From IMG/VR virus record IMGVR_UViG_3300027749_000089, positions 10,799 through 74,798 of that record: DNA of 64,000 nucleotides; one strand, 5' to 3'. Shown one piece after another: positions 1,226-59,696 of the stretch. Below the pieces are notes generated by a model. The model had not been told where the DNA came from. It did not search any database and saw only the letters and a program-made list of their open reading frames with translations. The translations under genes and the position numbers were made by a program. The stretch's first letter is position 1, and each line of letters starts with the position of its first letter. The stretch comes from a virus.

Positions 1226-1241
1226 GGGATATCTTATATGA
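1217..1241 (+). promoter_or_regulatory. motif class II copy (putative phage promoter)
   Basis: GCGCAATAAGGGATATCTTATATGA aligns without gaps to copies at 55254 and 55792. Confidence 0.4.
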
Positions 1242-1471
1242 AATCGTTAACAAACCAAGAGGTTAAGAACATGTTACACAAATTTGATTTAATATCTGCT
1301 ATTATTGGAATGATGATAGCAATAGCTGTATCGGTAGTGGTAGTTGATATGAAGTACGAAGACTATCGTCAAGTCCACCAAACTAATATTGGTGGTGTTG
1401 TAATTGAAGGCAAGCACATTTATGAGCTTGTTGAATTAAGTGATCCAAGCCAAGGGGTAGTAAGAAAATGA
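1238..1471 (+). CDS. hypothetical membrane protein
   Basis: Hydrophobic segment LISAIIGMMIAIAVSVVVV. Confidence 0.6.
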   Translation: MKSLTNQEVKNMLHKFDLISAIIGMMIAIAVSVVVVDMKYEDYRQVHQTNIGGVVIEGKHIYELVELSDPSQGVVRK

Positions 1472-4664: not shown

Positions 4665-4829
4665 GTTACTGTGCATTATATTTTATTAGCTTAATTGGTA
4701 CACCATATGTTATCTATGATAACGCTGTGTACTCAAATCAACCAATTCCAGGTATGACAACTATTGTTGCCACCCAAGAGATTCTGGATCACTTCATTGA
4801 ACAAAATGAAGCGACCTGTGGAGAATAAG

Positions 4830-5198
4830 ATGCTTGAAGTAGATAAAGAGTATAACAATCTTAATGGTCAACGTATTCGGATATTATTTAAAGAATACGA
4901 TCAGTTTGTAGGCGAGAACATGTTTAATGAAGATCTTGAATGGTACAGTAAAGAAGGTCATGGATATGTTGATTTAGTCTTAGAACAACCACTAGATCTT
5001 AAAGTAGGAGATACATGGTTAGATCACTGGAATAACCACGTGTTTATCGCTAGTATTAGCCCTACAGCACAAAGTGGAAGCTATCCTGTTATCGGCATCA
5101 TGTACCCTAACACCATCGGGCACAAAGCAGCATGCTATGCTATAGATGGTAAAGCAGCATGCGCTAGTCACTATCCTTTAAAGGAGAAAATAAAATGA
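4830..5198 (+). CDS. two-domain member of the EVG repeat family
   Basis: MLEVDKEY...DLV / LKVGDTW...YPVIG...DG. Confidence 0.65.
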   Translation: MLEVDKEYNNLNGQRIRILFKEYDQFVGENMFNEDLEWYSKEGHGYVDLVLEQPLDLKVGDTWLDHWNNHVFIASISPTAQSGSYPVIGIMYPNTIGHKAACYAIDGKAACASHYPLKEKIK

Positions 5199-5377
5199 AT
5201 TTTGTAAAAGTCACAGGTGTATTGATTAACCTTGATAGGATCTCAGAAGTGTGCATATCAAAGGTTGGAGAAAACTTTGATGTACGGATATCATATGGTG
5301 ATGTTAATGACTGGTCGAGATATTTTTTAAATGAAGAAGAGCTAGCTAAAATTGAAATTGCAATGGGAGTAAGATGA
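5195..5377 (+). CDS. hypothetical protein
   Basis: AAGGAG RBS, overlapping start/stop. Confidence 0.6.
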   Translation: MNFVKVTGVLINLDRISEVCISKVGENFDVRISYGDVNDWSRYFLNEEELAKIEIAMGVR

Positions 5378-5742
5378 TGATAGAAGTTGGCAAAGAGTAT
5401 AGAAATGGGGACAATCATCGTATTTATATAGTATTTGAAAAAGATGATAAATTTGTTGGTGTTGATTTATTCAATGAAGATCTTGATTGGTATTTTGGGA
5501 ATGGTGTATGTACATCTGTTAATGAATCTAGGTTTAATCTAGTGATGCCTATGAAACTAGAAATCGATCACATATATAGTAACACAGACGATGATCGGTA
5601 TATTGTTAAACATTATGATGGTTATGGTAATTATTGGGCCGCTAGACTTGGTCAAGCGTGTAATGGTTCTTGGTTCTATGAGGATGGTAGATATTATAAA
5701 CACGAAGAAACAAGTCATGATTTAATTAAAGAGGTATTCTGA
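5374..5742 (+). CDS. two-domain member of the EVG repeat family
   Basis: IEVGKEY...FVGVDLFNEDLDWY closely paralogous to 4830 (FVGENMFNEDLEWY). Confidence 0.7.
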   Translation: MMIEVGKEYRNGDNHRIYIVFEKDDKFVGVDLFNEDLDWYFGNGVCTSVNESRFNLVMPMKLEIDHIYSNTDDDRYIVKHYDGYGNYWAARLGQACNGSWFYEDGRYYKHEETSHDLIKEVF

Positions 5743-21320: not shown

Positions 21321-22904
21321 ATGACATACGGCCCTACTAAGACAGTTGCGGATCCTTGTCAAGCGTATGAGTATCTTAAACCTTCGTGGAATAAGGCACG
21401 TGCTGTATGCAATGGGGAACGTACTGTAAAAGAGCTGGATCAGTATATTGATCTAATTAGATTTAGCAATTTGCTGATACCCTTCTCTACAACAATGAGC
21501 CAAGCTCAATATGACTTTTATAAGTCAGAAGCTGAATTACCAGGCATTACTGCACAATTTGCTAAGATGCTTGTTGGGGGTTTATTAAGAAAAGCTCCTA
21601 TATTAACATTACCGGATGAAGTTCCTGAAGAAGCTAAGGATTGGCTTATCAATAATATCGGACGTGATGACTCTACACTAGTAGCATTTCTTGATGAATT
21701 ATTGTGGGAAGAGATCAATACATCCCGTGCATGGGTATTTGTAGACCACCCATCCGTTAATAATGTTGAAAACTTAGATAAAGAAACTAGAGATATGATT
21801 AAACCATATCCTATTTTGCAAAAAGCTGAAACAATTGTTAACTGGGCAACAGCTGTAGATATATTTGGTAAAACAGTTTTAAAATATGTAATTGTTAAAG
21901 GTTACTCAGACGATTATACTATTAATGAATTCCATGCTATGAGAGTCCCTACGGTCTGGGTACATGAATTAAACGAAGAAGGTAATTACCAAATTCGTAA
22001 GTTCATGGGCACAACTAAAGACAATGGCGATCAAACTCTTAAAATAGGAGGTATTGGTGAGAAAGCTCAGCAATTACTACCTTCAGGCCATTTCGAGTTA
22101 ATAGAAACATTTGACAATATACTTAATAGCGGGGAACCACTAAGGCATATTCCTGCATGGCCTGTTAATGGTAGTATAGAACCTATTATGCCATTATTAA
22201 TGCCTATCGTAGATAAAGAGATTAGCCTATATAATAAAATTAGTAGACGAAATCATTTACTATACGGTGCAGCTACTTATACACCTGTTATTATGTCAGA
22301 TATGCCTGATGAACAATTTGATGAAATTGTAGACGCTGGATTAGGGTCTTGGATAAGATTACGCCAAGATGATAAAGCAGATGTCTTAAAAACACCCACA
22401 GACGCATTACAAGACATGCAAAAAGCTATTGAAGCATCTATCGATGAAATGGCTAAACTTGGCATTAGAATGCTTACAACTGAAAATGAACAATCAGGTA
22501 TTGCATTAGAAATTCGTAATGCTGCTCAAACGGCACAATTAAGTGTGTTGAGTACAAAAATCTCCAGTACATTAAAGCAAGTAATATGCTTAATGGTTAA
22601 TTGGAGATATGGATTAAAAATTAATGCATGTGATATTGTGTTTAATTTATCCGCAGATTTTGATCCAGTGCCTTTAGGTGCTGAGTGGTTGAATCTTGTT
22701 ACTCAATGGTATCAATCAGGGTTATTACCTAGAACTGTGTGGCTGCAGATGCTAAAGGCAAATGATATTCTTAATTCTGAATATGATGATGAAGCCGCAT
22801 TACAAGAAGTAAACGCAGATCCTCAGATCATACCTGCAGCAACTAAATATAATGATCAGTATGCAATGCAAACATCATCACAACAAGGAGTTAATAATGG
22901 CTAA
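21321..22904 (+). CDS. portal protein (DUF4055-like)
   Basis: 527 aa, GLLRKAP, WVFVDHP, ETIVNW, IPAWPV, PLLMPI motifs; precedes MuF head gene. Confidence 0.8.
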   Translation: MTYGPTKTVADPCQAYEYLKPSWNKARAVCNGERTVKELDQYIDLIRFSNLLIPFSTTMSQAQYDFYKSEAELPGITAQFAKMLVGGLLRKAPILTLPDEVPEEAKDWLINNIGRDDSTLVAFLDELLWEEINTSRAWVFVDHPSVNNVENLDKETRDMIKPYPILQKAETIVNWATAVDIFGKTVLKYVIVKGYSDDYTINEFHAMRVPTVWVHELNEEGNYQIRKFMGTTKDNGDQTLKIGGIGEKAQQLLPSGHFELIETFDNILNSGEPLRHIPAWPVNGSIEPIMPLLMPIVDKEISLYNKISRRNHLLYGAATYTPVIMSDMPDEQFDEIVDAGLGSWIRLRQDDKADVLKTPTDALQDMQKAIEASIDEMAKLGIRMLTTENEQSGIALEIRNAAQTAQLSVLSTKISSTLKQVICLMVNWRYGLKINACDIVFNLSADFDPVPLGAEWLNLVTQWYQSGLLPRTVWLQMLKANDILNSEYDDEAALQEVNADPQIIPAATKYNDQYAMQTSSQQGVNNG

Positions 22905-23205
22905 GAGTGTAAAAAGAAGTATGGCGTTAAAAGGCAATAATAATGCGGCTAAACATGGATTAGGTGCAGGATTTGGTGCAACAATGGGTGCAGGCTTAGC
23001 AATGCCTTTTGCAAAACCTGCTGCAATGTTTATGGCTAAAAGTGCTGGTCCAATGGTAATTGCACATGCTGCAGGATTAGGTGCATCTAAAGGATTATTG
23101 TTTGGCGGTACTGGGGCGTTAGTGGGGGCAGCTATTGGTGGCGGCTTAAGTTATTTAGCGTATAGTAAATTGCCAATTCAAAATCATGCAAGACACACTA
23201 ATTAA
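22897..23205 (+). CDS. Gly/Ala-rich glycine-zipper protein
   Basis: AAGGAG RBS; GxxxG repeats; GNNNAAKHG motif. Confidence 0.6.
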   Translation: MAKSVKRSMALKGNNNAAKHGLGAGFGATMGAGLAMPFAKPAAMFMAKSAGPMVIAHAAGLGASKGLLFGGTGALVGAAIGGGLSYLAYSKLPIQNHARHTN

Positions 23206-23218: not shown

Positions 23219-26200
23219 ATGATTATTAATAGTAATACACAAATTTATGACAAAACGCTAGATCGCGCAGCGATGATCCGTCTATATGAGAGAAGAGTCT
23301 CTGGTAAAGTTGATTTAGTAATTGATGGTCATGTTGTTAGACTAGATAAATTAATTAAAGATGCAGAATTATCAGGACGAGGTTTCGAAAAATTTAGAGA
23401 AGCTATTGACCAAGAATTAAGAAAGACATATAAATCAATTAATAATTCTGTTCAAAAAGATCTATCATCTCTTGTATCTGATCAACTCTCATATGCTTAT
23501 CAAAAAGTAGAAGTGGCAATGGGTAAAATATGGCGTACTGAAAGACCTAAGAATAGAATCTCTGAAGAAATTGTACTTAAAAACCCATTAAGTGAAAACG
23601 GTACAATGGAGCAGGGATGGTCAGGTATTGCCAAGAATGAAAAAATTAGATTAGAAGCAGTTATACGCAAAGGTATAGCTGACGGAAAAAGCGTAGATGA
23701 AATAGCTCTACAAATACGTTCAGGAAACGTACATAATATAACTCGCATGCAGTCGAAAGGTCTGGTAATAACAGCCATTACAGCTGTATCCTCTCAGGCT
23801 GATCATGCTATTTATAAAGCAAATGAAAAAGCGTTACAAGGATGGCAATATGTTGCTGTCCTTGACGCACGAACAACTCCGCTATGTGCTCATAGAGATG
23901 GTGAAATTTATCCGATAAGCGATACAATACATCTTCCACCGGCACACTGGCATTGCAGATCTACTACAGTTCCTGTATTTAAATCATGGAGCGATATAGC
24001 AGATCTGGAAAGTGTAGCACAAGTAAGACGTAGGAATATTGAGAACTTAACTGATGCTCAAAAAGCTTTTTATGACGGTAACACACCTCTTAGAGAGTCA
24101 TACAACGATTGGCTAAAGCGGCAACCACAAGATGTACAATTAAGGCATCTTGGTGATTATAAAAAAGTTAACATGTTTCAATCAGGACAACTTACTGTTG
24201 ATCAATTTACTAACCCAGAAGGTAACACTATTGGAATTAAAGAATTGAGACGTATGACTGATCCTACATATACACTTCCTAATGATACACAGAAATTTGC
24301 TAATGCAAAAGCTAAATTAGATGCGATGCAATTACCTATTATGACACCAGATGATTTAATAGGAGATCCTAAATTAATTCAAACATTAAAAGATTATTAT
24401 TTATTACAGGCAGGTGAATTAGATGGTACCTTATCTCTTACCAATTATCGAGGCGCACTTATCCATACAAAGAAAGCTGCCAAGACAAGAGTGCTTAACA
24501 GTCTTCCAACGGAGGACCAACTCATCTTTAACCCCGTTACCGGTAGGTACGAAGATACAAGATTATATCAACCTAATCCATCCGTACTCAATAATAACTT
24601 AAGACTTGCAAAACAAAGTGATGTTTTGAAACCAAAAGATAAAGAGTTTATTAATTCATTTAATACTGCGCTTAGTGAAAAGATGAGTGTTAATGAGCGT
24701 GCCGTTGTGGTAGATAACCTTCGTATTCTATTTACCAGATTTAGAAATAATGGTGAACAGTGGAATAACTTTAAAGCTGTGGTACAGGGTCAAATTAAAT
24801 TTGATGTAATGAATGTTTCTGATGCTATTGAAACTCAGATACGTAGTGATATCAACGTATTGAAGAAACTCAAACAAGATAATTATATTGATCCAGTATT
24901 AGGTCCAACTCAATTACAAGACTTGCATGATAATTTCATTGATAATATTCGTGCTAAGAATAACTGGGAAGATACTATATCTCCTAAGATAGCTAGAGAG
25001 TTACGTAATACATTTGATTACAAGATACCCTTAGTATTAAAAAGAATGCCTAATGGTAAAGAGCGTTTAACTGAATCTGCATTACAACAATTTTATCTAA
25101 AGTTTGCGCACAGATTAAGCATGGCAGATATGCCTGATAGAGATCAATTTGCTATTGCATTAGGAAGAGATTTATACAATCTTGCTAATATGAACGGCAC
25201 TAGACGTAAATGGTACGAAACAGGTATGAAGCTTCTTGAAGCTAAAAATGTTAGTAACTTCTTTGAAGTTGAAACATATGGTGTTCAAAAGCGAAGAATG
25301 AAAAGTAGACTTAGTGGTTCCTTGTTTGGCCCTTATTATGACACTCTGTCATATAATATAAGAGTTGTAGACCCTCGAATACAAGAATATTCACAGCTCA
25401 CACGGAAAGTGGACGTTGGCCTACGTGTTGGCGTAACAACAGAAAAGAACAAACTGGTTTTTCGCGAGGGATATAAAACTTATTTTATTGACAGAGGTCT
25501 CCTAGGTTTAGAAGATACAAGAATACCTATTACGTCAACAAATAGTTTTTCAGATTTTCCTGAAGAACTTGTTGATAAAAATATGGCAGATGCGTTAAAT
25601 TGGGCATCTAAGTCTAAGTATAAAATTGATAATGACTTTTACGACTTTACACAAAAATTATTATACTTTGAAGATGATCGAGGTAACGCTAAAAAGTATA
25701 ATGATCTAAATGAATACAAACACTATATTTCATCTCGTGGTGATGCATATGAACGATTTAAATCTATGGATTGGCTTAGAAATAATGATTACGCTTTCAG
25801 TAATCATGCTTTTGTCGATCATCGGGCTAGGATCTATGATCGTGGCCTTATTAGTCCGCAATCGGGAGAATCATTTAGACCTTTCTTAAATACTGAAGTA
25901 GAAAAAGTTCTTGGCGAAGATGGATATAGAAACTTCAGAGATCAGATAGGTGCCTTTATGGGTGGTCTAAATGATGTATTTGAAGGTAGATATAATTCAT
26001 TGTCATTTACTGGACGCCAAAAGATTGCTGATAAATTGTGGCCAGATATGGTAGACCTTGGTAATAAAATGTTAAGAGCCAAACCTGCAGATTTACGTGC
26101 TATTCTGGAATCAGATACGGTGCAATTAATTGAAGGTGAGGAACTTGGTAAGTTCATGAGATTTGCCATGGAAGCTGCTAAGATAGATAATCATCTTAAA

Positions 26201-27856
26201 GCCGGTGGCTCTATGAATGCATACAAAACAGCCTTAGCCTTGGAACAAGATGCATCGTCTTCAGGTGCTCAGATTATTGCATTAACTACAAAGAATAAGC
26301 AATTAGCTTCATTATCTAATGTTATACCAACAAATCAGAAACGCAGACTATATGATGAAATTGCTGCTGCAACATTTAATGATCCTCGGTTTAAGGTGCT
26401 TAACGAAAGATTATGCCTCAATGAAAAAGATTTACGTAAAGCTGCAAAAGCTCAAAATATGGTTACGTTTTATGGTGCTGGTGAGAGAACGGGAATTTTA
26501 AATGTAGAAGGAAAGTTAGCTAAAGTACTTGGGAAGGACTCTTCTACACTAGTAGTAAAAGCTAGTGATCGTGATAAAGTATTAAATGAAATTTCAGCTC
26601 GTGCGGCTAGATATGAAAAGTTTGATCCAGAGACAACTGCAGAGCTTAAACAGCTTAGAGAAAACGTTAAAGATATATTTAACAAAGGCTTAGATCCTGG
26701 TGATGACATTATGGAACAGTTATATTTCCTGGATCCTGCTACTAAAGACTTAGTAGAAAAAATGACACACACCTATGATATGGTGGTTACACCTAAAGAC
26801 TTCCAAGCTATTGCTAAATTAATGTCTGAACATTTAGGTGAGCAGGTTCCTATTCTTAAAGATTTTACTAAATTCTTTGGTAGACTAGCTGAAGATTATT
26901 TAACTAATGCTAAGCCTTCACAAGCTGCATTAGATTGGAGATCTATAGGCGCTACTAGTATATTAGGTGCCCGTAAAAAAGGTTATGTATTACCTGATAG
27001 AGTTAGTGAAATATTAGGATTGAAGCCTGGAGAAGCTTTGTCTGAAAAGTTTTTAAAGAGATTTGATGGTTGGAAACCTGACGGAACCTTGGCTGATCTT
27101 ATTTATGGTGTAAAAGGCCCAAAAGATCGTAGAACTGGATTTAAAGTATTTAAAGTAGAGCCTATAGAAAAATTAAATATCTCTAAAGGTTTTGAAATAT
27201 TTTATGCTAATAAGCTGCCCAAGTCTTGGACTAATGTCCCATGGGTTAATTTTGATGGAAAAGTTATTGAGCAAAACTTTACCCAGTCATTTGAAGAAAG
27301 ATTAGTCTATAAAGACAAAGATGGTAATTGGGTTAATAATTTGGTTCAGGTGCAGCAGAAAACAGAAGCCACTTGGTGGGAACAGGTAGTTAATGCAGAC
27401 GGTAAAATAAATGACATTGCAGACGCAACTAAAGCACGAACAGCATATGCAGTTAACGGCAATCACTCAAATGATGCCACGTTGGTTAAGAATTTCCATA
27501 TCTGGGGACGAGACAATAAGATTGCCACAAGCACCATTCACGATGCGTTTTTCGCCAATGCAGCCGATATGCTGGAGGCCCGGAAGGGTATAAGAAAACT
27601 ATATGCTAACGTACTAGATAAGAACCCTGTCAAGGTTACTTTAGATGAAATGTTAGCTAGAGGTTTTCCAAAAGAATTATATGATAAATATTTAGAAGAA
27701 GCTATTGACAAAGGATTAATTCCAGTTGCTGGTAAATCAGTTGTCGGTGGTAAAACATTAACAGAAGCTGACATCTTAACAAAGAAAGATGTAATGAGCG
27801 ATATCCCCGATCCTACTAAATTTGAGGATGATTGGGGTTTTTACGGCATAGGCTGA
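23219..27856 (+). CDS. MuF/SPP1 gp7-like head morphogenesis domain fused to T7-like single-subunit RNA polymerase
   Basis: N-terminal YVAVLDARTTPLC...PPAHWHCRST (Phage_Mu_F); C-terminal DHRARIY, SPQSGE, motif A QDASSSGAQ, motif B RKAAKAQNMVTFYG, NHSNDA, motif C IHDAF. Confidence 0.9.
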   Translation: MIINSNTQIYDKTLDRAAMIRLYERRVSGKVDLVIDGHVVRLDKLIKDAELSGRGFEKFREAIDQELRKTYKSINNSVQKDLSSLVSDQLSYAYQKVEVAMGKIWRTERPKNRISEEIVLKNPLSENGTMEQGWSGIAKNEKIRLEAVIRKGIADGKSVDEIALQIRSGNVHNITRMQSKGLVITAITAVSSQADHAIYKANEKALQGWQYVAVLDARTTPLCAHRDGEIYPISDTIHLPPAHWHCRSTTVPVFKSWSDIADLESVAQVRRRNIENLTDAQKAFYDGNTPLRESYNDWLKRQPQDVQLRHLGDYKKVNMFQSGQLTVDQFTNPEGNTIGIKELRRMTDPTYTLPNDTQKFANAKAKLDAMQLPIMTPDDLIGDPKLIQTLKDYYLLQAGELDGTLSLTNYRGALIHTKKAAKTRVLNSLPTEDQLIFNPVTGRYEDTRLYQPNPSVLNNNLRLAKQSDVLKPKDKEFINSFNTALSEKMSVNERAVVVDNLRILFTRFRNNGEQWNNFKAVVQGQIKFDVMNVSDAIETQIRSDINVLKKLKQDNYIDPVLGPTQLQDLHDNFIDNIRAKNNWEDTISPKIARELRNTFDYKIPLVLKRMPNGKERLTESALQQFYLKFAHRLSMADMPDRDQFAIALGRDLYNLANMNGTRRKWYETGMKLLEAKNVSNFFEVETYGVQKRRMKSRLSGSLFGPYYDTLSYNIRVVDPRIQEYSQLTRKVDVGLRVGVTTEKNKLVFREGYKTYFIDRGLLGLEDTRIPITSTNSFSDFPEELVDKNMADALNWASKSKYKIDNDFYDFTQKLLYFEDDRGNAKKYNDLNEYKHYISSRGDAYERFKSMDWLRNNDYAFSNHAFVDHRARIYDRGLISPQSGESFRPFLNTEVEKVLGEDGYRNFRDQIGAFMGGLNDVFEGRYNSLSFTGRQKIADKLWPDMVDLGNKMLRAKPADLRAILESDTVQLIEGEELGKFMRFAMEAAKIDNHLKAGGSMNAYKTALALEQDASSSGAQIIALTTKNKQLASLSNVIPTNQKRRLYDEIAAATFNDPRFKVLNERLCLNEKDLRKAAKAQNMVTFYGAGERTGILNVEGKLAKVLGKDSSTLVVKASDRDKVLNEISARAARYEKFDPETTAELKQLRENVKDIFNKGLDPGDDIMEQLYFLDPATKDLVEKMTHTYDMVVTPKDFQAIAKLMSEHLGEQVPILKDFTKFFGRLAEDYLTNAKPSQAALDWRSIGATSILGARKKGYVLPDRVSEILGLKPGEALSEKFLKRFDGWKPDGTLADLIYGVKGPKDRRTGFKVFKVEPIEKLNISKGFEIFYANKLPKSWTNVPWVNFDGKVIEQNFTQSFEERLVYKDKDGNWVNNLVQVQQKTEATWWEQVVNADGKINDIADATKARTAYAVNGNHSNDATLVKNFHIWGRDNKIATSTIHDAFFANAADMLEARKGIRKLYANVLDKNPVKVTLDEMLARGFPKELYDKYLEEAIDKGLIPVAGKSVVGGKTLTEADILTKKDVMSDIPDPTKFEDDWGFYGIG

Positions 27857-27859: not shown

Positions 27860-27994
27860 ATGAACGCAGAAATTAAAAGATGTACATGTCAACATCCTAA
27901 TCAGGATAAACTCCATGGCAATGGAATGAGAGTGATGAATCCAGATCAGAAGAAAGGGTTCACATGCACTGTATGTGGAGCAAAACACAAATGA
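27860..27994 (+). CDS. 44-aa putative Zn-binding protein
   Basis: MNAEIKRCTCQH.NQD..HG.GMRV.N...CTVCG; manually translated. Confidence 0.55.
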   Translation: MNAEIKRCTCQHPNQDKLHGNGMRVMNPDQKKGFTCTVCGAKHK

Positions 27995-28212
27995 GATTTA
28001 GTCACGCATTAGATTTAATAATTGCAAACCACAAACTAGCACGTACAGGTTGGAACGGTAAAAACATGTATGTCAGTATTGTTAGAAATTTTGGTTCAGT
28101 TGAGCCATTTTTCATATTAACACAACCTACTAAGACGAACACATGGGTTCCTTCAATGTCTGATTTATTATCGGATGATTGGGTTATCTTTCCAGAGACC
28201 CCGTTAAATTAA
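27991..28212 (+). CDS. DUF2829 / Tad2-like (Thoeris anti-defence sponge family) protein
   Basis: F..AL......ARTGWNGKNMYV...WVPSMSDLLSDDW signature. Confidence 0.75.
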   Translation: MRFSHALDLIIANHKLARTGWNGKNMYVSIVRNFGSVEPFFILTQPTKTNTWVPSMSDLLSDDWVIFPETPLN

Positions 28213-28216
28213 CCCT
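28199..28216 (+). promoter_or_regulatory. motif class I copy
   Basis: CCCCGTTAAATTAACCCT overlapping the DUF2829 stop codon. Confidence 0.65.
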
Positions 28217-28312
28217 TAAGCGGTCCCCCCTTTAATGAGTCTATTAGTTAATTAGTCCTTTATTTATTCTTTAATAAAATAATAATAAATAAATATATTA
28301 ATGATTAATAGA

Positions 28313-28330
28313 CCCCGTTAAATTAACCCT
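28313..28330 (+). promoter_or_regulatory. motif class I copy
   Basis: CCCCGTTAAATTAACCCT about 80 nt before scaffold/capsid operon. Confidence 0.65.
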
Positions 28331-28408
28331 AAATACTAAAAACAAATATCCTATAGGGTGAATTGTATTCACTTTATAACACTGAGTTGTACTCAAAGGA
28401 AACATAAA

Positions 28409-29047
28409 ATGACCGAAAATGTCGAAGAAAAAGAAACTGATAATATTACTCCGGATACTACTGCTACCAATTCTCCTGTGGATGATATGGACACGAAGAT
28501 CCAAGAAGCTCTTAAACCAATCAAAGAAAAACTCGATAAAGCGTACAGCGAAAGAGACAATGCGTTAAAGAAAGCTGCTGAGTATGAACAAAAAGAGAAA
28601 GAAGCTGAAATAAAAAGACTTCAAGAAGAAGGAAAACATAAAGAAGTTTATGAACTTCAGTTAGCGGAAGCCAATGCTAAATTGGAAACGATAACAAAAC
28701 GTAACATAGAACTCGCTAGAGATTTAGAAGTAAAATCTGCTCTTAGTGGATATACGTTTAGAAGTGATAAAGCTGCGGATATGGCATATATGGATGTGGC
28801 ATCGCAACTTGTACAAAATGAAAATGGAGTATGGGTGCATAAATCAGGAACTGATCTAAGAACCTTTATAAAACAATTTTCTGAAGACGATAACAATTCT
28901 TTCTTATTCAAACCAAAAGTTTCGACAGGGGCCGGTCAGACAAGTTCTAGCAGTACTTCTCAAGATACTTCGAATAAATCTTTATTCCAGTTATCACAAG
29001 ATGAAGTGCTTAAACGTGCTGCTGAAGGATCACTTCGCAGGAAATAA
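28409..29047 (+). CDS. capsid scaffold protein
   Basis: Coiled coil, FLFKP..STGAG C-terminal motif, directly before capsid gene. Confidence 0.75.
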   Translation: MTENVEEKETDNITPDTTATNSPVDDMDTKIQEALKPIKEKLDKAYSERDNALKKAAEYEQKEKEAEIKRLQEEGKHKEVYELQLAEANAKLETITKRNIELARDLEVKSALSGYTFRSDKAADMAYMDVASQLVQNENGVWVHKSGTDLRTFIKQFSEDDNNSFLFKPKVSTGAGQTSSSSTSQDTSNKSLFQLSQDEVLKRAAEGSLRRK

Positions 29048-29069: not shown

Positions 29070-30308
29070 ATGGGCGCTACAACTTTAAGCCTTACTAATG
29101 GGCCATCGGGATTATCTACTAATTATGTATTACAAGAAGCTATTGGCGCATACAGCGACGAAGCTTACACTAATGCTAGAAAATTATCAGGTACAGGAAT
29201 TACTTCTTCTAACCCACAAATTGATACCAGCACAGAAACCTTTATTGGCCAAATGCGTTGGATGAAACCGTTAAACCCAACTATTAACGTTGCGTCATTA
29301 ACTGATTCTACAGATGGTACTAAAACCAGTTACGACACTGACTACAGCACATATATTAAAACTGTGCGTACACACGGTGCCGAAAAAGTTAACATGCAAC
29401 AAATTGTTACACAACAAGACGGTCTAGCTAAAATTGGTCGTGACTTCGGTGAAACTCGTGCTCAAGACGAACACAATGCTATTCTTTCTGTATTGAAAGG
29501 TGTTGCTGTAGCTGAAGCATTAAACGGTGCTGCTACAGGCTCTGGTTCAACTGGTCTTGGTGGTCAAACATTCTCTAACGATCCTACAGATAAGAAATAT
29601 GGTTTCTACGTAGATCTTGGTTCTGAGAAAATCGTTACTGCTAATGGTGTTGCTCCTGGTGCCGTTGTTAACTATGCATATCAAGGTGCTTCACGTGCTG
29701 AAGGTTTCTTAAATGCATTCGGCATGGCATTTAAAGATTATGAACCAGAATGGGCATACTTAGTTGTATCTCCTGAAACTATGGCTTCATTCCGTTCAGC
29801 TAATTTTGTTGATGAAACAACTATTGTTGATGGTAACATTAATTTTAACACAATCTTCAATGGTAAATTCCGTTTAATCACTACACGTGCTGCTCAGTCG
29901 CTTTCTGCTGCTGAATTAACAATGTTACGTACTGGTGCTGGCGTTGGTGCTACAACTACTTTTGCTGCTAATAAGAAAACTTCATTCATTGTATTGCCAG
30001 GTGCAATTGCAATGGAACAGTTGATGGTTCCTGATTCAGTTGAAGTTTACCGTGACGCTAACAAATACAAAGGTGGCGGTACAACTTCTATTTGGAATCG
30101 TTGGGGTTATGTATTATCTCCTGCTGGTTACGATTGGAATGGTGCTAAAACTGCATTCCCATCTGACGCTGATTACATGGGTGTTGTTGAAAGCGGTACT
30201 TCTAAAGCTCTTACAGCTACAACTACTATTGCTAGCGCACGTGGTACATGGACACGTAAAACACAATCAGCATTATCATTAGGTATCTTACCTGTATTCC
30301 ATTCTTAA
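29070..30308 (+). CDS. major capsid protein
   Basis: 412 aa, strong codon bias, position after scaffold, EVYRD...GGG...W.RWGYVL.P.GYDW C-terminal pattern. Confidence 0.8.
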   Translation: MGATTLSLTNGPSGLSTNYVLQEAIGAYSDEAYTNARKLSGTGITSSNPQIDTSTETFIGQMRWMKPLNPTINVASLTDSTDGTKTSYDTDYSTYIKTVRTHGAEKVNMQQIVTQQDGLAKIGRDFGETRAQDEHNAILSVLKGVAVAEALNGAATGSGSTGLGGQTFSNDPTDKKYGFYVDLGSEKIVTANGVAPGAVVNYAYQGASRAEGFLNAFGMAFKDYEPEWAYLVVSPETMASFRSANFVDETTIVDGNINFNTIFNGKFRLITTRAAQSLSAAELTMLRTGAGVGATTTFAANKKTSFIVLPGAIAMEQLMVPDSVEVYRDANKYKGGGTTSIWNRWGYVLSPAGYDWNGAKTAFPSDADYMGVVESGTSKALTATTTIASARGTWTRKTQSALSLGILPVFHS

Positions 30309-33535: not shown

Positions 33536-36500
33536 ATGTCAGGCATTGTCATTGATGTCGAAGCTAAGATTGATAAAGCGCAGCGTGATCTAAATACATT
33601 AAATAATTCAGTTAAAAATATTGAAAAAAGTACTAGCTCGGTGGCTAATGCCTTTGATGGTCTTATAGCTTCAGTCGGTAGTTTAACAGCGTTAGGTAGT
33701 TCGTTATATTTTATGCAAGATATAGCCACTTCTTATCGCAATATGGAAAACCAAATAAAATTGGTTACAAATAGTACAGAGGCTTTCACTAAAACGCAAG
33801 AAGAGCTCTACAACATAACCAAAGAAACACATAGCGAATTGAAAAATAGTGTTTCTATTTACTCAACATTAGGCAAGTCGCTAAGCCAAGCTGGAATTTC
33901 ATCTGAAAGATTAGTCAGTGCTACTAAAACTATACAACAGTCTATGAGTATTTCAGGTGCATCTGCTGAGTCGGCTAATGCAGCTATTATGCAGTTAGGC
34001 CAAGGGCTGTCTTCAGGTGCATTACGTGGTGAAGAATTAAACTCAGTGATGGAACAAGCTCCACGATTAGCACAAGCGTTGGCTGACGAATTACACGCCA
34101 GCTTAGGGGAAATGCGTACTCTTGCTGCAGAAGGCAAGCTCACTACCAATGTTGTATTTAAAGCATTAGAAAACCAAGCAGGAAAAATTAATGATCAATT
34201 TTCTAAATTAAAACCTACATTAGCGCAAGGCACACAAGCTTTGAGTCAGAGCCTTAAAAATTATTTTTATGAATTTGACAAAGGATTAGGCTTAACAGAT
34301 CTAATGGGTGTGAGAAATGCCAAACTTGCTGATAAAATTGATGAAGCTGCTAAAAAAGCCTTTATATTAGGTAATAATATCGCTATAGTTGCATTAAAGT
34401 ATAAGAATATTTTTGATTATGCACAGAGACCTCTTAGATTACAAGCTGAAATAAATTTTGAAAAATTTAAAATAAGCTTAGAGCAATTAGGCATAACAGC
34501 CGCATTTGAGCATCTTGGAAAAAATCTTGAAGTTTTATTAAATAATATTTTCAATGGGCTACTTGATAGATTTCAAGCACGTAATAAGGGGATAGGCAGT
34601 ATAATTAGTGCATCCGTTTTAGATACTTTTCATGATGCAATGAATTTACAAGCATTAGAAATGGATAGTATCCTTAATAAGCTAACTAGAAGTATTTTTA
34701 ATTTTGTTAGAAATATTAATGCTACCGTCACTGAGTTGAAGTTAAAACCTCTTTTATTTATTGATGACCTTTTTAATAATATCCTTCGAGGTTCACAAAA
34801 TTTAGATTTTGCATTAACAGCTATAACTCGATTCGGTAAAGATGTTATTCATGTATTCTTTAATATTTACGATAAAGTGATTGGAAATTCGTGGTGGACA
34901 GACACTATTAATACAGTTATAAATACGTCTGATTCATTATGGTCTAATGCTAAAAATGGCTTAACTAAGTTTTCAAAAGGCGTCCAAAATATTTTTGAAG
35001 GTTTATATAATGATGTAGTAGACATTGTTGACAGCTTTGGTAGTTTTGATATTAAAACAATAAAAATAGCTATAGTAGTAAGCCGTGTTGAAGAGTTTGG
35101 AAGAGATATTTATACAAGTTTAGTTTCAGGCATTACTAAATTTAGTAAAGAATCGCCTATGCTATTTCAATCAATAGCAGCAGGGTTAGGCGCAATTCTA
35201 GTTAGTATGATGTTTCCTGTATCACGTATCACCCTTGCATTAGAAGCTGCTTTAACAACTTCTGCTTTAAAATCAGGTGCCATTTTTAGTGAATCAATAG
35301 GAAAAGATTTTTTAGATGAAAGTTTATTTTTATCAATAGGTAAGAAACTTGGAGAACTTACTGGCAAGCTAGTTGATAACTTTATAAAACAAATACCAAA
35401 CTTGATATCAGCTCTCTTAGGTGTAATAAGCGGGTTTACACGAGGTTTTTTAGAACAAATACCAATAATTGGATTAGCTTTTAAAGCATTATTTAAAATT
35501 GGTGATTTAACTGAAACCAGCGGGCCATTAGGCCTAGTTGGGGGTTTGTTACTAGGGACTATGGGCCTGAAACTTCTTTCCTCTATAGGTATATTTAGCG
35601 ACCAAATTGAAGGTATTTTTGTAGTTGCTAGAAGAGTAGCTATGTTCTTTGCCGGGCGCGGTGGCCTAATGTCGATGTTGCTCTTTGGAGGTAATAGAGC
35701 ATTCTTTACAATTGGTTGGGCAGGTCTTATATTAGATCAGATGGGCGCATTTGACAGTCTTTTTGAAAATTCAGGGCTAATGCACTTAGCCATAAAAGGT
35801 GGATTGCTTGCAATGGCTTTGTTTGGAATTAATGGTCTTCGCGCTATTCGTGCTGAAATCATTATTCCAATATTACAAAGTTTTCGTGCGTTAATAACAA
35901 GCTTTAGTTGGGGCACATCATTACTTTCTGGCCTAGAAGCGGCTATTGCGGGGAGTGGCAGAGGGTTATTAATGCGATTTGTTGGAATGTTAGCAGCTAT
36001 GCGTCGAGGTATGACTGATAGACTATTTGCTATGACATCTGGACAATCTATTATTGAAGCATTAATTTTTGGATCAGCTGGGCCAATAGGTCTTATTGGA
36101 AGTTGGTATTCAAGTATTGTAGGTTTCTTTTCGCGTATAGGCGGCTTAAGTATATTTAACGGAATTGGACCGGCACTTGCTTCAGTTAGCGCATCTATGG
36201 CAACATTACGCGCATCTGCAGGCGCTACAGGAATCCTCAGTAGATTTCTATTTGGCCCAGCAGGTATTGCAGTCGTATTAGCCGCTATTAGTATGTTTGT
36301 AAGCTCTGTTAATGCAGCTGAAATTGAACTTGGTGGTGATAAACGACAAAAGAAATCCTGGTTTGAAGAATTAAAAGATTCTATATCTTCATTCAATATT
36401 TCTAAATTATTCACTGGAAATCCTTTTCAACCATTAGTTGATTTTTGGAATGATATAGATATTGTAAACACCATATCACAGAATGTTGGGACAGTGATAA

Positions 36501-39500
36501 GCACTACAACTGCTTCTGTAGGCTTCTTCCTATTTGTATTTAAATCGCAAGTAGCTCAGCTGCTTTCTGTACTATTTTCAGCTGTCAATTTGTCAAGGGT
36601 AGCTATAGCAACTTCACAAGCCGTATCTCTTATTGGAATTGCTGCTTCACAAATTAAAGGTTTTATATATTCCATTGGCGCTGCAATTACCAGTCTTAAT
36701 TATGTAGCAATGTTTTCTTCTTTATCAGGAGGACTAGCTACATTTATTCTTAGCATGCGAGGTATTCTTCTTAGCGGCATGGGAGCTATGGCAGGCGCAA
36801 TGGCTGCAAATCTTGTAGGCGGCTCTGATTGGGCAGCTTTAGGTGCAATGATCGGTGCGATGATTGGCTTGAAAATTTCAGAAGCAATTGGAAGAGCAAT
36901 ATTAACACAAGCCGGCTTAATAATTGCAAGAGCAATTGCAGTAGTTATAGGTGGCTTGATTGCACTTGCTATTCCTATAGGTCTTATAGGTCTTTGGTTG
37001 TTTGGCGATAAACAGGATTTGGGCAAAGATTTAGATGATGTAATTGACAAAGTTAAAGAACTGATGGGCATGGGTTCGCCCACTAAGAATCTAACTACAG
37101 GCTTATCTAAAGAAGCGCAAGCAACAGCAGAAAAAATCGGTTTAAGCATTACGTATGATTTAAAAAAGATAAATCCTGATTTATTAAGTAAAACTGATAA
37201 AGATCGATTAGATGAGTCTATTAAGAGTTTAGATGAAGTTTTAGTAAATGGTGGAAAAGATCTTGAAGCGGGGATAGCATTAAGTGGTTCTCAACTTGGT
37301 GAAATACAATTAAAACAATTACGTACATCCAACATTGCTAATAAAGATGCTGCCAAAACAACATTTGAATTAAAGGATTTTGCTGACAGCGTATTAAGCG
37401 CTAATACAAGTAAGCCGCAAGATCGTTTTGATGTTGGGTTAAATTGGATTAAACAAGCTAGTTTAGATCTTAAATATAATATTGAGCATGCAATCCTTTC
37501 GGCTAAGGTGAAGTATCCTGTGTTCAAATCAGAGGATCCACTTAAAAATAGATTAATGCTAAATAATCTAGAAGAATCTAGAAAATATAAGTATACTGCA
37601 GGCGCTAAAGAACTGACAGATAGAGAGTTTTATATGGGGCGAGGCATTCAAAGCCTTGCATTGAATGGACCAGAAGGCCCAAAAATTAAAGAGCAGATGA
37701 CTCTTGAAGCAGCAAAGTATACTGAAATTATTAAAAAGTTAAATGACGAGTCTTCAGCTTATACTGCAGCTGACCGTACAATGATGGAAGAGTATAGAAA
37801 TTCATCAATGACACGTATGGAAACTTTATTAAAACAACAACAATACTTTCAAAAAGAATCTGCATCTATTGCTAAGTTTAATGCAGAATTAGGAAATCTT
37901 GCAAGTAACTTTAATACTAAAAACTTTGAATTCAAATTAGATACAAATAAATTATTTGCGCAAGATCAAGAAGCATACGATAGACTATTTTCTTTGAGCA
38001 AAGAAGCTAAGAAGCTGGGTGAAGAGTTAGAGAAAACTTCTGATATAAGCAAACGTAATTCTATTATATTGCGTATTGAAGAAATTAGAACAGTCACTAC
38101 ACGTCAAGTAGAACAAGCAAATAACCTTAGAAACAGAGCACAATTTGAATTAAAATCGATTGGTGAAAAAGCTGGTGTTAAAGTCCCTAGCGCGTCTGAA
38201 TACTTGCCGACCACTGCTGCAGAAGAATTTAGAACTCGTCTGCAATCCTTACAAGCTAGACGTGAAAATATTAAGACCAAGCCTGCTGCTCCAGCAATGT
38301 ATGCCTTGGGAGATATTCCTAAAGATAGTAAGGAATACACTGCATACATAGACGATTTCAATAAACGTAATGAAGCGTTTAAGAAAGCGGAAATAAATTT
38401 TAAAACAGAATCTGATGCAATTAATACCGAAAGTATTAAAATTCAAAATGATATTATTGAATCTTTAAAGACAAATTCAGATACTAAAGCACAATTCTTA
38501 AAAGATGCTGCTGAATCAGTTAATATAGACTTATTGCAATCTATTTCAGATTTCGGACTAGAGCAGGCTACTGATGCTATTATAAAGATTGCTGCTAAAT
38601 CAAATGAAGTATCCGATGCATTAGCTAATAAAGATTGGGGACTGGCGGCTAAGCTTAATGAAGAAATGAAATCAATGAAGTTAAGTATTGATCATATCGA
38701 TCCTAAACCTCTTGAAGATCTTTTATCCGTTCTTAATGTTACGGCTTCTAAGCGTGATATTTTAGGCTTTAGTAAAACATCTTTTGATCTATTCAAAGAA
38801 GCTGGAAAGAGCGTTCAAGAATTTGATAGAGCAATTAAAGCAGGTCAAGATACATTATCTCAAGATAGTCTTAATGATTTATTGTCAAAAAGGTTAATGG
38901 CTACTGAAGCGGCATTTAATGAAATGCTTAAGTATGCTAATACTACTGGCGAAAAAATGTCTCAATCATTTGCTGATATCGGTGTACAAGATGTCGGAGG
39001 TTTAAGTAATGTTTCAGAAGGCGCTTTAAAACGCTTATTAAGTTTACAAACTATGTTGGCTAAATTAAAGCATGATGCTGAAAAACCAATGAATTTATCT
39101 GAGTATAAGGAATATCTTAAAAACCTTAATTTAGTAAATGCTGCATTAATAAAAGCTAAGAGTGTTTTGGCAACGTTTAGTGAAAAAGCTAATACATTTA
39201 GAGAAATATTTAAAGTTGATTTAACAGATTTAGATATTGCGTCAATGGCTGATGGATTAGGCATGCGTCTTGTTGAAGTTGCACAAACTGCAAAAGCAGC
39301 ATTAGAATCAGCAATGAAATCAGATGGTGGAATATTTAGTGATTCTACAAAACAATTAGCGGAAAATTTAAAAGATATTTCTGATATTGGTCCATATATA
39401 AAGTTTTTTAATGATTTTAAAAACAATACTGAAGACTCTTTAACAGACGGCATTAAAACATCATTTGAAAAAGTAAAAGCTGCATTACCTAATTTTGGAT

Positions 39501-44280: not shown

Positions 44281-44918
44281 TGATCTCATTCACCCCTAAT
44301 ATAACAAAAGCATTAAATAGTGATGCAATCGAGTTTTTCTCATTAGTGCGAATAGAAAGAACCGCAAATGAAGTAGACCCAATACCTATCAATTTATATG
44401 CAACTACTAGCCATTACAATGATATTCAATTATTAGTAAATGGAAGTCCTTCAAGTAAATATAACTATATTGCTGATGGTACATTATATGCAGTAGATCC
44501 TCCTCAAAACTCTTCAGTAGTTGACAGAGAGCAATATAAGATTGCATTTGCAGACCCTGACTTTTCAAAGCGAGGTGCAACAGAAGATAGCCTTATAGGT
44601 AGAGTTGTTGAGTGTAGATTAGGCTTTGTTGATTCAGACCCTAGTTCTCCTACTCACGGTAAACCTTTTTTAAATATAGACGACACTATTGTAGTGTACA
44701 GAGGAAGAGTAGATGGCGTCTCAGCTAGTATAAAGGTGGGAAGCTTAGGTGAAAGCATATTACAAATAACAGGCTCAAGCCCAATGCGTAATTTAGACAT
44801 GAAAAAGCCATTCTTCTTGAGCCGTGAAAAGACTAAACAAAGGGAACCTCTTGATACTTCATGCGATCAAATTTATGAAGGTTCTACCGGTATCATTGTC
44901 AAGTGGGGGAGAAAATAA
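44280..44918 (+). CDS. tail tip protein (gpL-like position)
   Basis: Synteny; YRGRVD, WGRK C-terminus. Confidence 0.6.
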   Translation: MISFTPNITKALNSDAIEFFSLVRIERTANEVDPIPINLYATTSHYNDIQLLVNGSPSSKYNYIADGTLYAVDPPQNSSVVDREQYKIAFADPDFSKRGATEDSLIGRVVECRLGFVDSDPSSPTHGKPFLNIDDTIVVYRGRVDGVSASIKVGSLGESILQITGSSPMRNLDMKKPFFLSREKTKQREPLDTSCDQIYEGSTGIIVKWGRK

Positions 44919-54487: not shown

Positions 54488-54514
54488 GGCCCTGACTTCG
54501 GTTGGGGTCTTTTT
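54488..54514 (+). terminator. TTCG-loop terminator
   Basis: GGCCCTGAC-TTCG-GTTGGGGTC then TTTTT. Confidence 0.65.
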
Positions 54515-54979: not shown

Positions 54980-55200
54980 GTGATGCCAAAATTTTCCGCG
55001 TCAAGACGGGGCATTTCTGCACAAATTTTGGGTAGCGTGAAATCTGGGCGTGTGTGGGCACGCGGTGTGGGCGCATCACTGAGGGATCAGCGTGGCACCC
55101 GCGTGCCGTGTGGGGCAATTTCTGGCGGCAGAACGGGCACTCTCAGCGTGTGGCGTGTGGCAGTTTTCAGCACCGAACCCGTTAAATTAACCCTTCAGAC
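54980..55200. other. GC-rich non-coding island with GTGTGG repeats and an inverted repeat
   Basis: Five GTGTGG copies; GGCACGCGG (55057-55065) pairs with CCGCGTGCC (55099-55107). Confidence 0.6.
55178..55194 (+). promoter_or_regulatory. motif class I copy
   Basis: CCCGTTAAATTAACCCT, plus a partial AATTAACCCT at 55211-55220. Confidence 0.6.
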
Positions 55201-55253: not shown

Positions 55254-55278
55254 ACGGAAATAATGGTATCTTATATGA
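55254..55278 (+). promoter_or_regulatory. motif class II copy
   Basis: ACGGAAATAATGGTATCTTATATGA. Confidence 0.5.
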
Positions 55279-55454
55279 TAATCAATATAGATTATTATAA
55301 CCAAGGAGTATACTATGAAACATAATAAAGTAACACCTATCCAACAATTGGCATTAATTAATAATAAAAATGTTCCTTTTCCTTTCCGTAAAAAGAAAGA
55401 GAAAAATACGGAAGCTTTTGATACCTTTCTTAAGGCAGCATTGAAGGAGCAAAA

Positions 55455-55791: not shown

Positions 55792-55816
55792 GCGGAAAAA
55801 GAGGTATCTTATATGA
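55792..55816 (+). promoter_or_regulatory. motif class II copy
   Basis: GCGGAAAAAGAGGTATCTTATATGA immediately after terminator. Confidence 0.5.
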
Positions 55817-55867
55817 AGTACAATAAGGTACCTCAACTAACTTTAATATTCCAAAAGGAAACTAACA

Positions 55868-57476: not shown

Positions 57477-59696
57477 ATGCGAAATAGATTAAAGCAATCT
57501 TTAACACGTAGAATGCAGTTAGAAATTGCACCACAAAGTCCACTCAAATTTTTAAAAGAAATAGATGTAGAAAATATATTAGATATAATAATATCTAACG
57601 TATACTTATACACTCGTCCAAAGAGAGGTGCTATAAATAAACAAATACTAATGGTTGAAGTGATCAGTATTATTGGGCATTCGGTAAGACGCGGCTTAAA
57701 GAAAGACTCTTCTATTGCAGCTAAGACCGGTGCATTCATATTATATTCATTTGAAGAACTTGGAATGCTTAGGGCAATACTTGGTTCTGCTGGAAATGGA
57801 CATGCAACATATGTTGTAGAAGTTTTAGATGATGCAACAATACAATTACTATGGGAAGGTGTAAGCAGAGAAGGTGCCAAAGGTAAATTACCTTCAATAA
57901 CACCATATGAACCTTATACAGAGTTCAAACACCCTACTGGACAAGTATTAGTCAAGACGGGTAATAAAGATGTTCCAACAAAATTAACACCTGCAACACA
58001 TCCTATAGTATTTGATTCAGTAAATAAAAGCTTAAATACGGGTTGGCAAATAAACAAAGAAGTTTATAATGTTTCTAAATGGGCATTGAATAACCATACT
58101 GATGCATTTAGTGATATATGGGAGCAGCAAAATCCTCAAGCTAAGACTACTAAATTAAGGGAAACAAAAGCTATTCTATCTATAGCAGATAAGTTCATGG
58201 ATACTGTATTTTACCATATGTATTACCTTGATTTCCGTGGAAGGAAATATCCAACAACGGCATATCTCCATGAACAATCTAGTGATATTGCTAAAGGTCT
58301 TTTAATGCGTCAAGATAAGAAAGTAATTGGCGAAGAAGGTTTCTTTTGGCTATGTGTATCTATCTCCAGTAACTGGGCAGGTTCATCAGGACGTGAAGAT
58401 GGTGCAAAGACAGATAAGATTAATCTCAAAGACCGATATCAATGGGTATTAGATAACCAAGAGATCTTATTATCATATGCAGAAAGTCCAAAAGTAAATC
58501 AAGGATGGATGTCAGGAGATAAGCCATGGCAATTCTTAAGTGCATGTATTGAATTAAGAAATGCTTTAAAATTGGGACCAAGATATTTAGAGTATGAGTC
58601 ACATGTTGAATGTTTTATTGACGGATCAACGAACGGCTCACAACATTTATCTGCATTAACAAGAGATGAAATAACAGCTCCATATGTTAATTTAATTCCA
58701 TTAGAACTTCCAGGTGATTTATATGCATATGTTGCCGAACATGTATGGAATAAAATATCTAATGACATAGCAAGAATGCCAGCGGATTTAATCTTTCAAT
58801 GTGAAGATTTTATAGATGGCTTAATTAAATTAAAGAAAAAGATTACTGCATCCGAACCTAAGTCTGAAATTAGGAATCAACTAGTAGCTCAAATTAAAGC
58901 CTATAAACAACAATGGGCGGATATTGGCTCTGTTGCAGCACCTGTATTTTGGAATCGTATAAAAGATTTGAAACAAAGAAGGAAGATAGTTAAAAGAAAC
59001 ACTATGACTCTTCCCTATGGAGGTAGCAGTTATGGATTGGGAGAGCAACAAATCCTTGATGCAAAAAAGCATGGAATAGACTTGCTACTTCATATGGAGC
59101 ATAAATGGGGAGCTTGGCTGGGCAGATTAGTATTTGAAGATTGTAAAGCTTCATTAGAGAAGCCGATGAGACTGTTAAATATATTTGAGAATGCCGGAAG
59201 AAACTGTGAGAAAATTGAAGAATTTTTATCATGGAATGTTCCAATAGTAAACTTTCCTGTAGTACAAAATTATACAGAAGGTAAAGTTAAAAAGATTTAT
59301 GTACAGTATGGGCCACCAGTTGGGTCACGTAAATCTACAGGTTATTATGAAAACACTTTTCAATTAGCAATATGTTTTATTGAAGATGTGGTTCCTAGTA
59401 AAGGTAAACAGTCTCAAGGAGCAGCACCTAACGTTATTCATAGTTTAGATGCAGCGCACTTAGCACTTACTACACACCGTTGTGATTTTACAATTACAAC
59501 AATTCATGACAGCTATGGTTGTTTATTTGCTGACATGCCAAATCTCTTTAGAATAGTTCGCGAGACATTTGTAGAACTTTATAAAGATAATCCATTGTTT
59601 CCAATAATGGATGATATTGACGGAGATCTTACTTATCTTGAGATGGGTGATCTTGATATTAATTTAATTCTAGAAAGCGAATACGCTTTCGCATAG
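57477..59696 (+). CDS. T7-like single-subunit DNA-directed RNA polymerase (stand-alone, short N-terminus)
   Basis: DFRGRKYP, Q.SDIAKGLL, KPWQFL, motif A DGSTNGSQH, motif B RKIVKRNTMTLPYG, PNVIHSLDA, motif C IHDSYG. Confidence 0.95.
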   Translation: MRNRLKQSLTRRMQLEIAPQSPLKFLKEIDVENILDIIISNVYLYTRPKRGAINKQILMVEVISIIGHSVRRGLKKDSSIAAKTGAFILYSFEELGMLRAILGSAGNGHATYVVEVLDDATIQLLWEGVSREGAKGKLPSITPYEPYTEFKHPTGQVLVKTGNKDVPTKLTPATHPIVFDSVNKSLNTGWQINKEVYNVSKWALNNHTDAFSDIWEQQNPQAKTTKLRETKAILSIADKFMDTVFYHMYYLDFRGRKYPTTAYLHEQSSDIAKGLLMRQDKKVIGEEGFFWLCVSISSNWAGSSGREDGAKTDKINLKDRYQWVLDNQEILLSYAESPKVNQGWMSGDKPWQFLSACIELRNALKLGPRYLEYESHVECFIDGSTNGSQHLSALTRDEITAPYVNLIPLELPGDLYAYVAEHVWNKISNDIARMPADLIFQCEDFIDGLIKLKKKITASEPKSEIRNQLVAQIKAYKQQWADIGSVAAPVFWNRIKDLKQRRKIVKRNTMTLPYGGSSYGLGEQQILDAKKHGIDLLLHMEHKWGAWLGRLVFEDCKASLEKPMRLLNIFENAGRNCEKIEEFLSWNVPIVNFPVVQNYTEGKVKKIYVQYGPPVGSRKSTGYYENTFQLAICFIEDVVPSKGKQSQGAAPNVIHSLDAAHLALTTHRCDFTITTIHDSYGCLFADMPNLFRIVRETFVELYKDNPLFPIMDDIDGDLTYLEMGDLDINLILESEYAFA

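Follow-up and report, generated by a model that had tools for sequence, protein, structure and literature searches.

The window analysed here is a stretch of 64,000 nucleotides (nt), namely the last 64 kb (positions 10,799 to 74,798) of the 74,798-bp IMG/VR virus record IMGVR_UViG_3300027749_000089, for which CheckV gives a completeness of 100%. The first 28 bases of the record recur at position 74644, so the assembly is self-closing. The window contains a gene coding for a MuF (SPP1 gp7-like) head-morphogenesis protein fused to a T7-type single-subunit RNA polymerase (RNAP), which an earlier note, made from the sequence alone, had proposed as a candidate virion-packaged enzyme. The single open frame it had described is confirmed, and all the MuF and T7-family motifs it had named were found at the places it gave. 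The gene and its parts, with protein positions counted in amino acids (aa), are as follows:

23219..27856, + strand: MuF-RNAP fusion gene, ATG start, 1545 codons, no internal stop
23219..24298, + strand: MuF/SPP1 gp7-like head-morphogenesis domain, aa 1-360, assigned by Pfam, PHROG and motifs
24299..24907, + strand: helical linker, aa 361-563, modelled confidently
24908..27853, + strand: whole T7-type single-subunit RNAP module, aa 564-1545, assigned by profile and fold
23861-23887 (aa 215-223): MuF motif LDARTTPLC
23936-23965 (aa 240-249): MuF motif PPAHWHCRST
aa 866-873 of the fusion: T/DxxGR-like VDHRARIY
26243..26272, + strand: motif A EQDASSSGAQ with the catalytic Asp D1011
26435..26482, + strand: motif B RKAAKAQNMVTFYGAG with R1073, K1077, Y1085 and G1086
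aa 1412-1420 of the fusion: VNGNHSNDA
27533..27553, + strand: motif C TIHDAFF with the catalytic Asp D1442

Both halves pass the Pfam gathering scores, in agreement with the domains proposed earlier: Phage_Mu_F (PF04233) matches aa 146-250 with an E value of 4e-14 (53.8 bits at a cut-off of 29.6) and RNA_pol (PF00940) matches the fusion protein with an E value of 2e-10 (40.3 bits at a cut-off of 22). The PHROG matches are head morphogenesis phrog_241 for aa 3-362 (E 2e-62) and RNA polymerase (E 2e-22). All the catalytic residues of motifs A, B and C are present, with R1073, K1077, Y1085 and G1086 of motif B spaced as R627, K631, Y639 and G640 of T7 RNAP, and the T/DxxGR motif reads DHRAR, with Ala for Gly and both Arg present. 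The motif B Tyr is separated from the motif C Asp by 357 residues compared to 173 in T7, indicating that the fingers of the fused polymerase carry large insertions. The family ends in a conserved YGIG(P), the T7 counterpart of which is FAFA. Judging by its sequence, the fused polymerase is apparently active.

The AlphaFold2 model covering aa 400-1545, with a predicted local distance difference test (pLDDT) value of 84.6 and a predicted template modelling (pTM) score of 0.82, shows the fold of T7 RNAP. T7 RNAP matches it with a Z score of 30.4 and a root-mean-square deviation of 3.3 Å over 523 residues, and since residues 170-1145 of the model lie on T7 residues 38-882, the polymerase module is predicted to span aa ~564-1545 and to be a whole T7-type enzyme including the N-terminal domain and the C-terminal end, its alignment with T7 RNAP taking in residues ~30-883 of the latter. 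Its length is about 980 aa and not the ~750 aa estimated previously. The Z scores are about 29-30 for mitochondrial RNAPs and about 22 for the N4 mini-vRNAP, the modelled core being nearer to T7 and mitochondrial RNAP than to N4. A single fusion sequence gave no matches among PDB sequences and a family profile was required, which matches T7 RNAP with an E value of 9e-25. The model of the N-terminal part (aa 1-580, pLDDT 85) matched only generic helical bundles, with a best Z score of 11.3, and no specific solved relative of the MuF half or the linker was found in this fold search. A complex prediction for MuF (aa 1-400) and the portal protein, both supplied as alignments, scored 0.00, which is uninformative either way.

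The same fusion, sought in phage data as the earlier note had proposed, was found in hundreds of loci of uncultured phages as well as in the cultured marine Naomviridae. The search with the polymerase part gave at least 434 protein clusters, nearly all of about 1540 aa with both PF04233 and PF00940 and located on contigs of up to 90 kb; there were only 162 matches among 1.84 billion cluster representatives, and at least 515 IMG/VR loci possess the fusion architecture. Among 24 aligned full-length distant representatives, with identity down to ~20%, the MuF domain was detected in all and RNA_pol passed in 19. In these homologues LDxRTxxxC and PPxHxxCRS of the MuF half as well as R871 of DHRAR are invariant, and D1011, K1077, Y1085, G1086 and D1442 are invariant or nearly so. 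The comparison supports selection acting on both halves of the fusion.

As for deposited phages, the full-length homologue of EBPR siphovirus 1 shares 58% identity with the fusion, and those of roseophages DSS3_VP1 and DSS3_PM1 share 27.7% identity over 97% of its length, while megablast against phage records returned no matches. The DSS3_VP1 homologue gp108 (NC_055826.1, 21242-25633) is annotated merely as "head morphogenesis" or "minor head protein-like", with the polymerase half left unannotated. The gene order endolysin, portal, fusion, head, tail is shared between DSS3_VP1 and the window, and with regard to membership of a Naomviridae-like lineage, the homologous head module and the gene order match DSS3_VP1.

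In Logan, the contigs from the probable source run are interrupted at 24124-24589, these breaks being strain bubbles with overlapping ends. Contigs of relatives from independent lake runs span 23975-24903 and so cross the MuF/linker boundary. RNA-library contigs (X15) cover relatives of the gene and are uninformative on transcription, its starts or its timing.

The genes around the fusion, together with a second RNAP gene, are the following:

21321..22904, + strand: portal protein, phrog_145, E 1e-54
22852-23205: 117-aa open reading frame (ORF) with no family, between portal and fusion
27964..28212, + strand: Tad2-like (Thoeris anti-defence 2-like) 82-aa protein, PF11195, E 2e-17, final gene of the operon
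28358-29047, + strand: scaffold
29070-30308, + strand: major head protein
57477..59696, + strand: second canonical T7-like RNAP, 739 aa, C-terminal YAFA (FAFA in T7)

The gene order is endolysin, portal, 117-aa ORF, fusion, Tad2-like ORF, scaffold, major head protein, adaptor, tail terminator and major tail protein, and the fusion is the only MuF protein of the genome. Its position in the MuF slot between portal and scaffold was described correctly, except that the two small ORFs (22852-23205 and 27964-28212) share the slot. The second RNAP (PF00940, E 8e-66) is a regular member of the T7 family, matching T7 RNAP with an E value of 4e-44, and was found in all five near-complete relatives, which represent both deep clades, as well as in DSS3_VP1 (gp080, annotated as RNA polymerase) and two partial contigs. 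The earlier proposal of a single packaged polymerase starting transcription had missed this enzyme, with which the model becomes a relay of two polymerases.

Two classes of promoter-like motifs are repeated in the window. Class A is the 19-mer CCCGTTAAATTAACCCTWA, present in 7 copies, all on the + strand, versus 0.03 expected, and resembles T7 class II/III promoters in its length of about 19 nt, the near identity of its copies and their location on one strand. Class B, GGAAAnnnnRGTATCTTATATGAW, is present in 3 copies versus 0.16 expected. The sites and a neighboring terminator-like hairpin are listed below:

1861, 6009, 6165, 28200, 28314, 55178 and 62422, + strand: class A sites
28200..28218 and 28314-28332, + strand: class A pair between the MuF-RNAP operon and the scaffold gene
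55178..55196, + strand: class A site shortly ahead of the first class B site in the early region
55266..55279, + strand: class B site GGAAAtaatGGTATCTTATATGATA, opening the small-gene cluster that contains the second RNAP
55804..55817, + strand: class B site immediately following a terminator-like hairpin and its run of T
1229..1242, + strand: class B site with one mismatch
54488..54509, + strand: intrinsic-terminator-like hairpin ending the tail/PhoH operon, upstream of the early region

The class B sites at 55266 and 55804 open the small-gene cluster leading to the second RNAP. Across genomes there are two to four copies of class B, which lie 2-7 kb upstream of the second RNAP in nine genomes and are conserved over about 30 nt in phages with a GC content of 36-47% from marine and freshwater samples. 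In the close relatives G001 and G002 both motif classes are those of the window and occupy the same places. In the distant clade (clade 2: DSS3_VP1, G004, G005, G008 and G009) class B reads AAAAAGTGAGAAAA-N5-G(C/T)ATCTATAAT(G/A), with two to three copies 2-7 kb upstream of the second RNAP, and each lineage has a class A-like repeat of its own, such as ATAGGGTGCGTTAAAGAGGGG with seven copies in DSS3_VP1. In the latter, two class B sites follow right after the tape-measure gene, then come 17 small genes and then the RNAP gene; over this interval class B is the only class present, the first class A copies lying beyond the RNAP gene. The fusion gene has neither motif close upstream, the nearest being class A at 6165, which suggests that it is read together with the terminase and portal genes. 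No hairpin shared by the class A or class B sites was seen, and nothing consistent was found on looking for N4-style hairpins in the early region.

GC-rich islands of ~200 nt, with 60-68% GC in a genome of 36% GC, lie directly upstream of class A sites (54983-55213 and 1643-1863, and 63191-63321 in G001). The island at 54983 is non-coding and full of GTGTGG/GCGTG repeats, and the islands may serve in packaging, mark a genome end or act as an origin. The 132-nt repeats at 59.7-60.5 kb, downstream of the second RNAP, were considered as promoters and rejected, being tandem paralogous small ORFs (60192-60323 and 60360-60491, 79% identity).

The region of the specificity loop differs between genomes in both polymerases. 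In the second RNAP it is alike in G000, G001 and G002, identical in G005 and G009, and different in G003, G004, G008 and DSS3_VP1, a pattern that is the same as that of class A wherever class A is readable. The loop of the fused enzyme, located before VNGNHSNDA, has two forms, one per clade, which is the pattern of class B. The informative case is G003, where the clade-1 loop of the fused enzyme and the clade-1 class B are retained, the loop of the second RNAP is different and the 19-mer is lacking. As loops and motifs co-vary in this way, the comparison is suggestive of class B being the promoter of the fused enzyme and class A that of the second RNAP.

The most likely reading, to which a probability of roughly 0.6 is assigned, is an N4-like relay in which the packaged fused polymerase would give rise to the second RNAP and the latter would serve the late genes and the rest of the genome. 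The fusion would be made late, along with the head genes, and its MuF domain would dock it to the portal during procapsid assembly, with a few copies being packaged and leaving the capsid together with the DNA. In the new cell, the packaged enzyme would transcribe from the few class B promoters heading the early cluster, yielding the second, ordinary T7-like RNAP, which would then transcribe the remaining genome from class A, including the operon making new fusion protein. The second RNAP, the two promoter classes and the co-variation of loops and promoters fit a polymerase that would enter with the genome and start transcription.

Several points weigh against this relay. With a tape measure of 3370 aa the siphovirus tail is expected to be very long, and a protein of 175 kDa would have to traverse it. 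The class B of clade 2 contains a perfect TATAAT without a −35 element, the window variant reading TTATAT, so the host sigma-70 RNAP is a possible reader in clade 2. The class A site also present upstream of the early cluster in the window leaves the map by itself compatible with more than one order of events. The co-variation is based on nine genomes, comprising two deep clades and one intermediate, and on a low-identity alignment of the loops to T7. Finally, the presence of the fusion in the virion, its ejection and its activity are, like portal docking, packaging and the assignment of enzymes to promoters, parts of the relay that we infer from sequence.

The strongest rival, which nevertheless appears unlikely, is that the host RNAP transcribes the early genes and the second RNAP gene from class B in the manner of T7, with the fused polymerase, packaged or not, doing other work, for which genome pull-in by transcription, late action near the portal or replication priming are each one possibility. 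T7 packages no polymerase, and its early genes together with the polymerase gene are served by the host RNAP; the TATAAT of clade 2 would suit such a scheme, and the strong Shine-Dalgarno sites found here make a host with sigma-70-type promoters plausible. Against it, class B has no −35 element and its TTATAT in the clade of the window is a poor −10, class B sites do not pass a sigma-70 scan, and sigma-70-like sites are not enriched in the early region (38 found versus 49.8 expected). Moreover, the conservation of class B over about 30 nt in marine and freshwater phages of 36-47% GC, as well as the way its two variants track the two loop types of the fused enzyme, weighs against a host reader.

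In another rival the assignment is reversed: the fused enzyme would read class A, being both the injected and the main late transcriptase, and the second RNAP would read class B only and boost the early cluster. If initiation is placed at the G that follows TATAAT, class B looks like the promoters of the T7 group (G at −11, TC at −8/−7, AT-rich from −4 to −1, G at the start), the second RNAP retains, in our reading of the alignment, residues equivalent to T7 R746 and Q758, and the fusion gene belongs to a class A-driven operon. This arrangement is nonetheless considered improbable, as the second RNAP gene of DSS3_VP1 is preceded by class B only and its first expression would need another enzyme, and as class A shifts with the loop of the second RNAP while class B stays with that of the fused enzyme, both of which are seen in G003. 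The last rival, that the fusion is an artefact (an assembly chimera or two genes read through as one) or a decayed gene whose polymerase is inactive, finds its only footing in the contig breaks at 24124-24589, which are strain bubbles bridged by lake contigs, and is refuted as far as sequence data reach, given hundreds of homologues down to ~20% identity with a single frame and all catalytic residues, some of them in cultured isolates.

In some relatives the fusion gene is interrupted by group I introns scoring at or above the Rfam gathering score. The intron of EBPR siphovirus 1 (E 1.6e-8) holds the HNH gene gp48, so gp47 and gp49 are exons of a single gene. In the alignment, the breaks come after residues 886, 1044, 1078, 1082, 1084 and 1414; none of these six sites lies outside the polymerase half, and motif B accounts for three of them. 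An Rfam intron match lies directly at most breaks, with a gap alone at 1044 and 1078 in L061, which is broken at three sites, and at 1078 in L028. Homing elements are typically inserted into conserved portions of genes that are needed. The introns are located as follows:

L061: 12597-12839
L026: 4792-5037
L030: 13251-13489 and 15105-15368
L025: 3571-3770
L028: 6732-6972
L005: 9179-9405

The second RNAP gene is also broken in G002 (46656-48425) and G003 (4226-5694, both in record coordinates), with split frames and one TGA, and the interruption is probably another intron. Longer homologues of the fusion, 1610-1775 aa (P0003, P0013, P0027, P0053, P0069 and others), contain variable insertions of 66-230 aa at aa ~994-1001, before motif A, and at aa 1107, after motif B (P0001 numbering). 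These were considered as inteins and rejected, as the inserts are without intein ends and look like variable loop insertions.

The remainder of the genome of this freshwater phage includes siphovirus-type tail genes coding for the major tail protein, tape measure and distal tail protein. Two large genes of this region are:

33536-43648, + strand: tape measure, 3370 aa, SLT transglycosylase domain at aa 2138-2244
44903-53107, + strand: 2734-aa protein with no PHROG match and a short Phage-tail_3 match at aa 382-465

Only TMP and SLT domains are present in the tape measure. Tape measures usually scale at ~0.15 nm per residue, and at this value 3370 aa correspond to a tail of roughly half a micrometre. 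The 2734-aa protein is probably a central tail or host-recognition protein. The replication module (L004, genome 1-10900; window 3360-3713) includes a family A DNA polymerase cut by the record start, a 5′–3′ exonuclease, a primase-helicase, both ribonucleotide reductase subunits and an ATP-dependent ligase, and free-standing GIY-YIG and HNH endonuclease genes are also found in the genome. A link with deoxyuridine (dU) in DNA was considered since the cultured relatives have dU genomes. No match to the pathway genes, namely Dcd of the deoxycytidine monophosphate (dCMP) deaminase family and YfbR-like Dtm, was found in this genome, G001 or G004, so dU-DNA was rejected as a requirement for the fusion; in DSS3_VP1 both families gave matches (Dtm below the cut-off), and in G005 only the deaminase did.

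To our knowledge, virion-packaged RNAPs are limited to a few phage groups (N4-like, phiKZ-like, crAss-like and P23-45), and the fusion described here can be compared with several known systems. SPP1 gp7 binds the portal and is present in 1-2 copies per capsid (PMC5576092), and the effector domains borne by MuF are believed to reach the host along with the DNA (PMC5512222). Such MuF-toxin polymorphic proteins and effector fusions likewise combine an N-terminal MuF with C-terminal enzymatic cargo presumed to travel in the head, but the cargos described for them are toxins or small effectors and their phages mostly temperate, with no polymerase among those in either paper (Jamet 2017, PMC5576092; Iyer 2017, PMC5512222), whereas the present fusion carries a polymerase of 980 aa and belongs to a phage lineage that is apparently lytic.

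N4-type virion RNAP modules have been found solely in N4-like phages (Iyer et al. 2017, PMC5512222), where gp50 has ~3500 aa with N-terminal injection and C-terminal encapsidation regions of its own (PMC5512222). The fusion resembles gp50 in being a T7-family single-subunit polymerase encoded among virion genes, in possessing extra domains thought to bring the enzyme into the capsid and in matching its core fold (Z about 22 for the mini-vRNAP, as given above), and the proposed relay recalls that of N4, where early promoters are few and a second phage RNAP, produced early, takes over. It differs in having 1545 aa with an N-terminal MuF/gp7 domain instead of a giant with its own modules, and in belonging to a long-tailed phage with siphovirus-type tail genes and not to a podovirus neighbourhood. 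At the candidate promoters no conserved hairpins like those of the N4 early promoters were seen.

The virion RNAP of Thermus phage P23-45 is reported to be fused to the tape measure and to transcribe pre-early genes, among them that for a second, non-virion RNAP (bioRxiv 10.1101/2022.12.01.518664). Both cases combine a structural virion protein fused to an RNAP, a long-tailed phage and a second RNAP downstream in the scheme, but P23-45 has a two-barrel RNAP on the tape measure and the window a T7-type RNAP on the portal-associated MuF. The fusion belongs to neither the N4-like nor the P23-45 polymerase family, the logic being alike. No published description of the fusion was found outside subscription journals, and the literature covered there on Naomviridae, DSS3_VP1, MuF toxins and polyvalent proteins does not mention it.

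Each group of virion RNAPs has changed the understanding of early infection. If the relay is true, the cargo placed in the common MuF slot can be an entire transcription enzyme, which would be the third independently evolved way to package a polymerase, after N4 and the tape-measure fusion. The chances appear about even that a large and so far unnoticed set of marine and freshwater phages with long tails, the abundant Naomviridae among them, would be independent of the host RNAP from the first minute of infection, with a MuF-anchored T7-type polymerase reading the ~30-nt class B and launching the second T7-like RNAP. New pairs of orthogonal polymerases and promoters would also become available from the relay, the two polymerases and two conserved promoter-like motifs of each genome being candidate parts of tools for orthogonal expression. 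The cultured Ruegeria phage DSS3_VP1 would gain readily testable biology, and the start of infection in a widespread group of aquatic phages would be explained.

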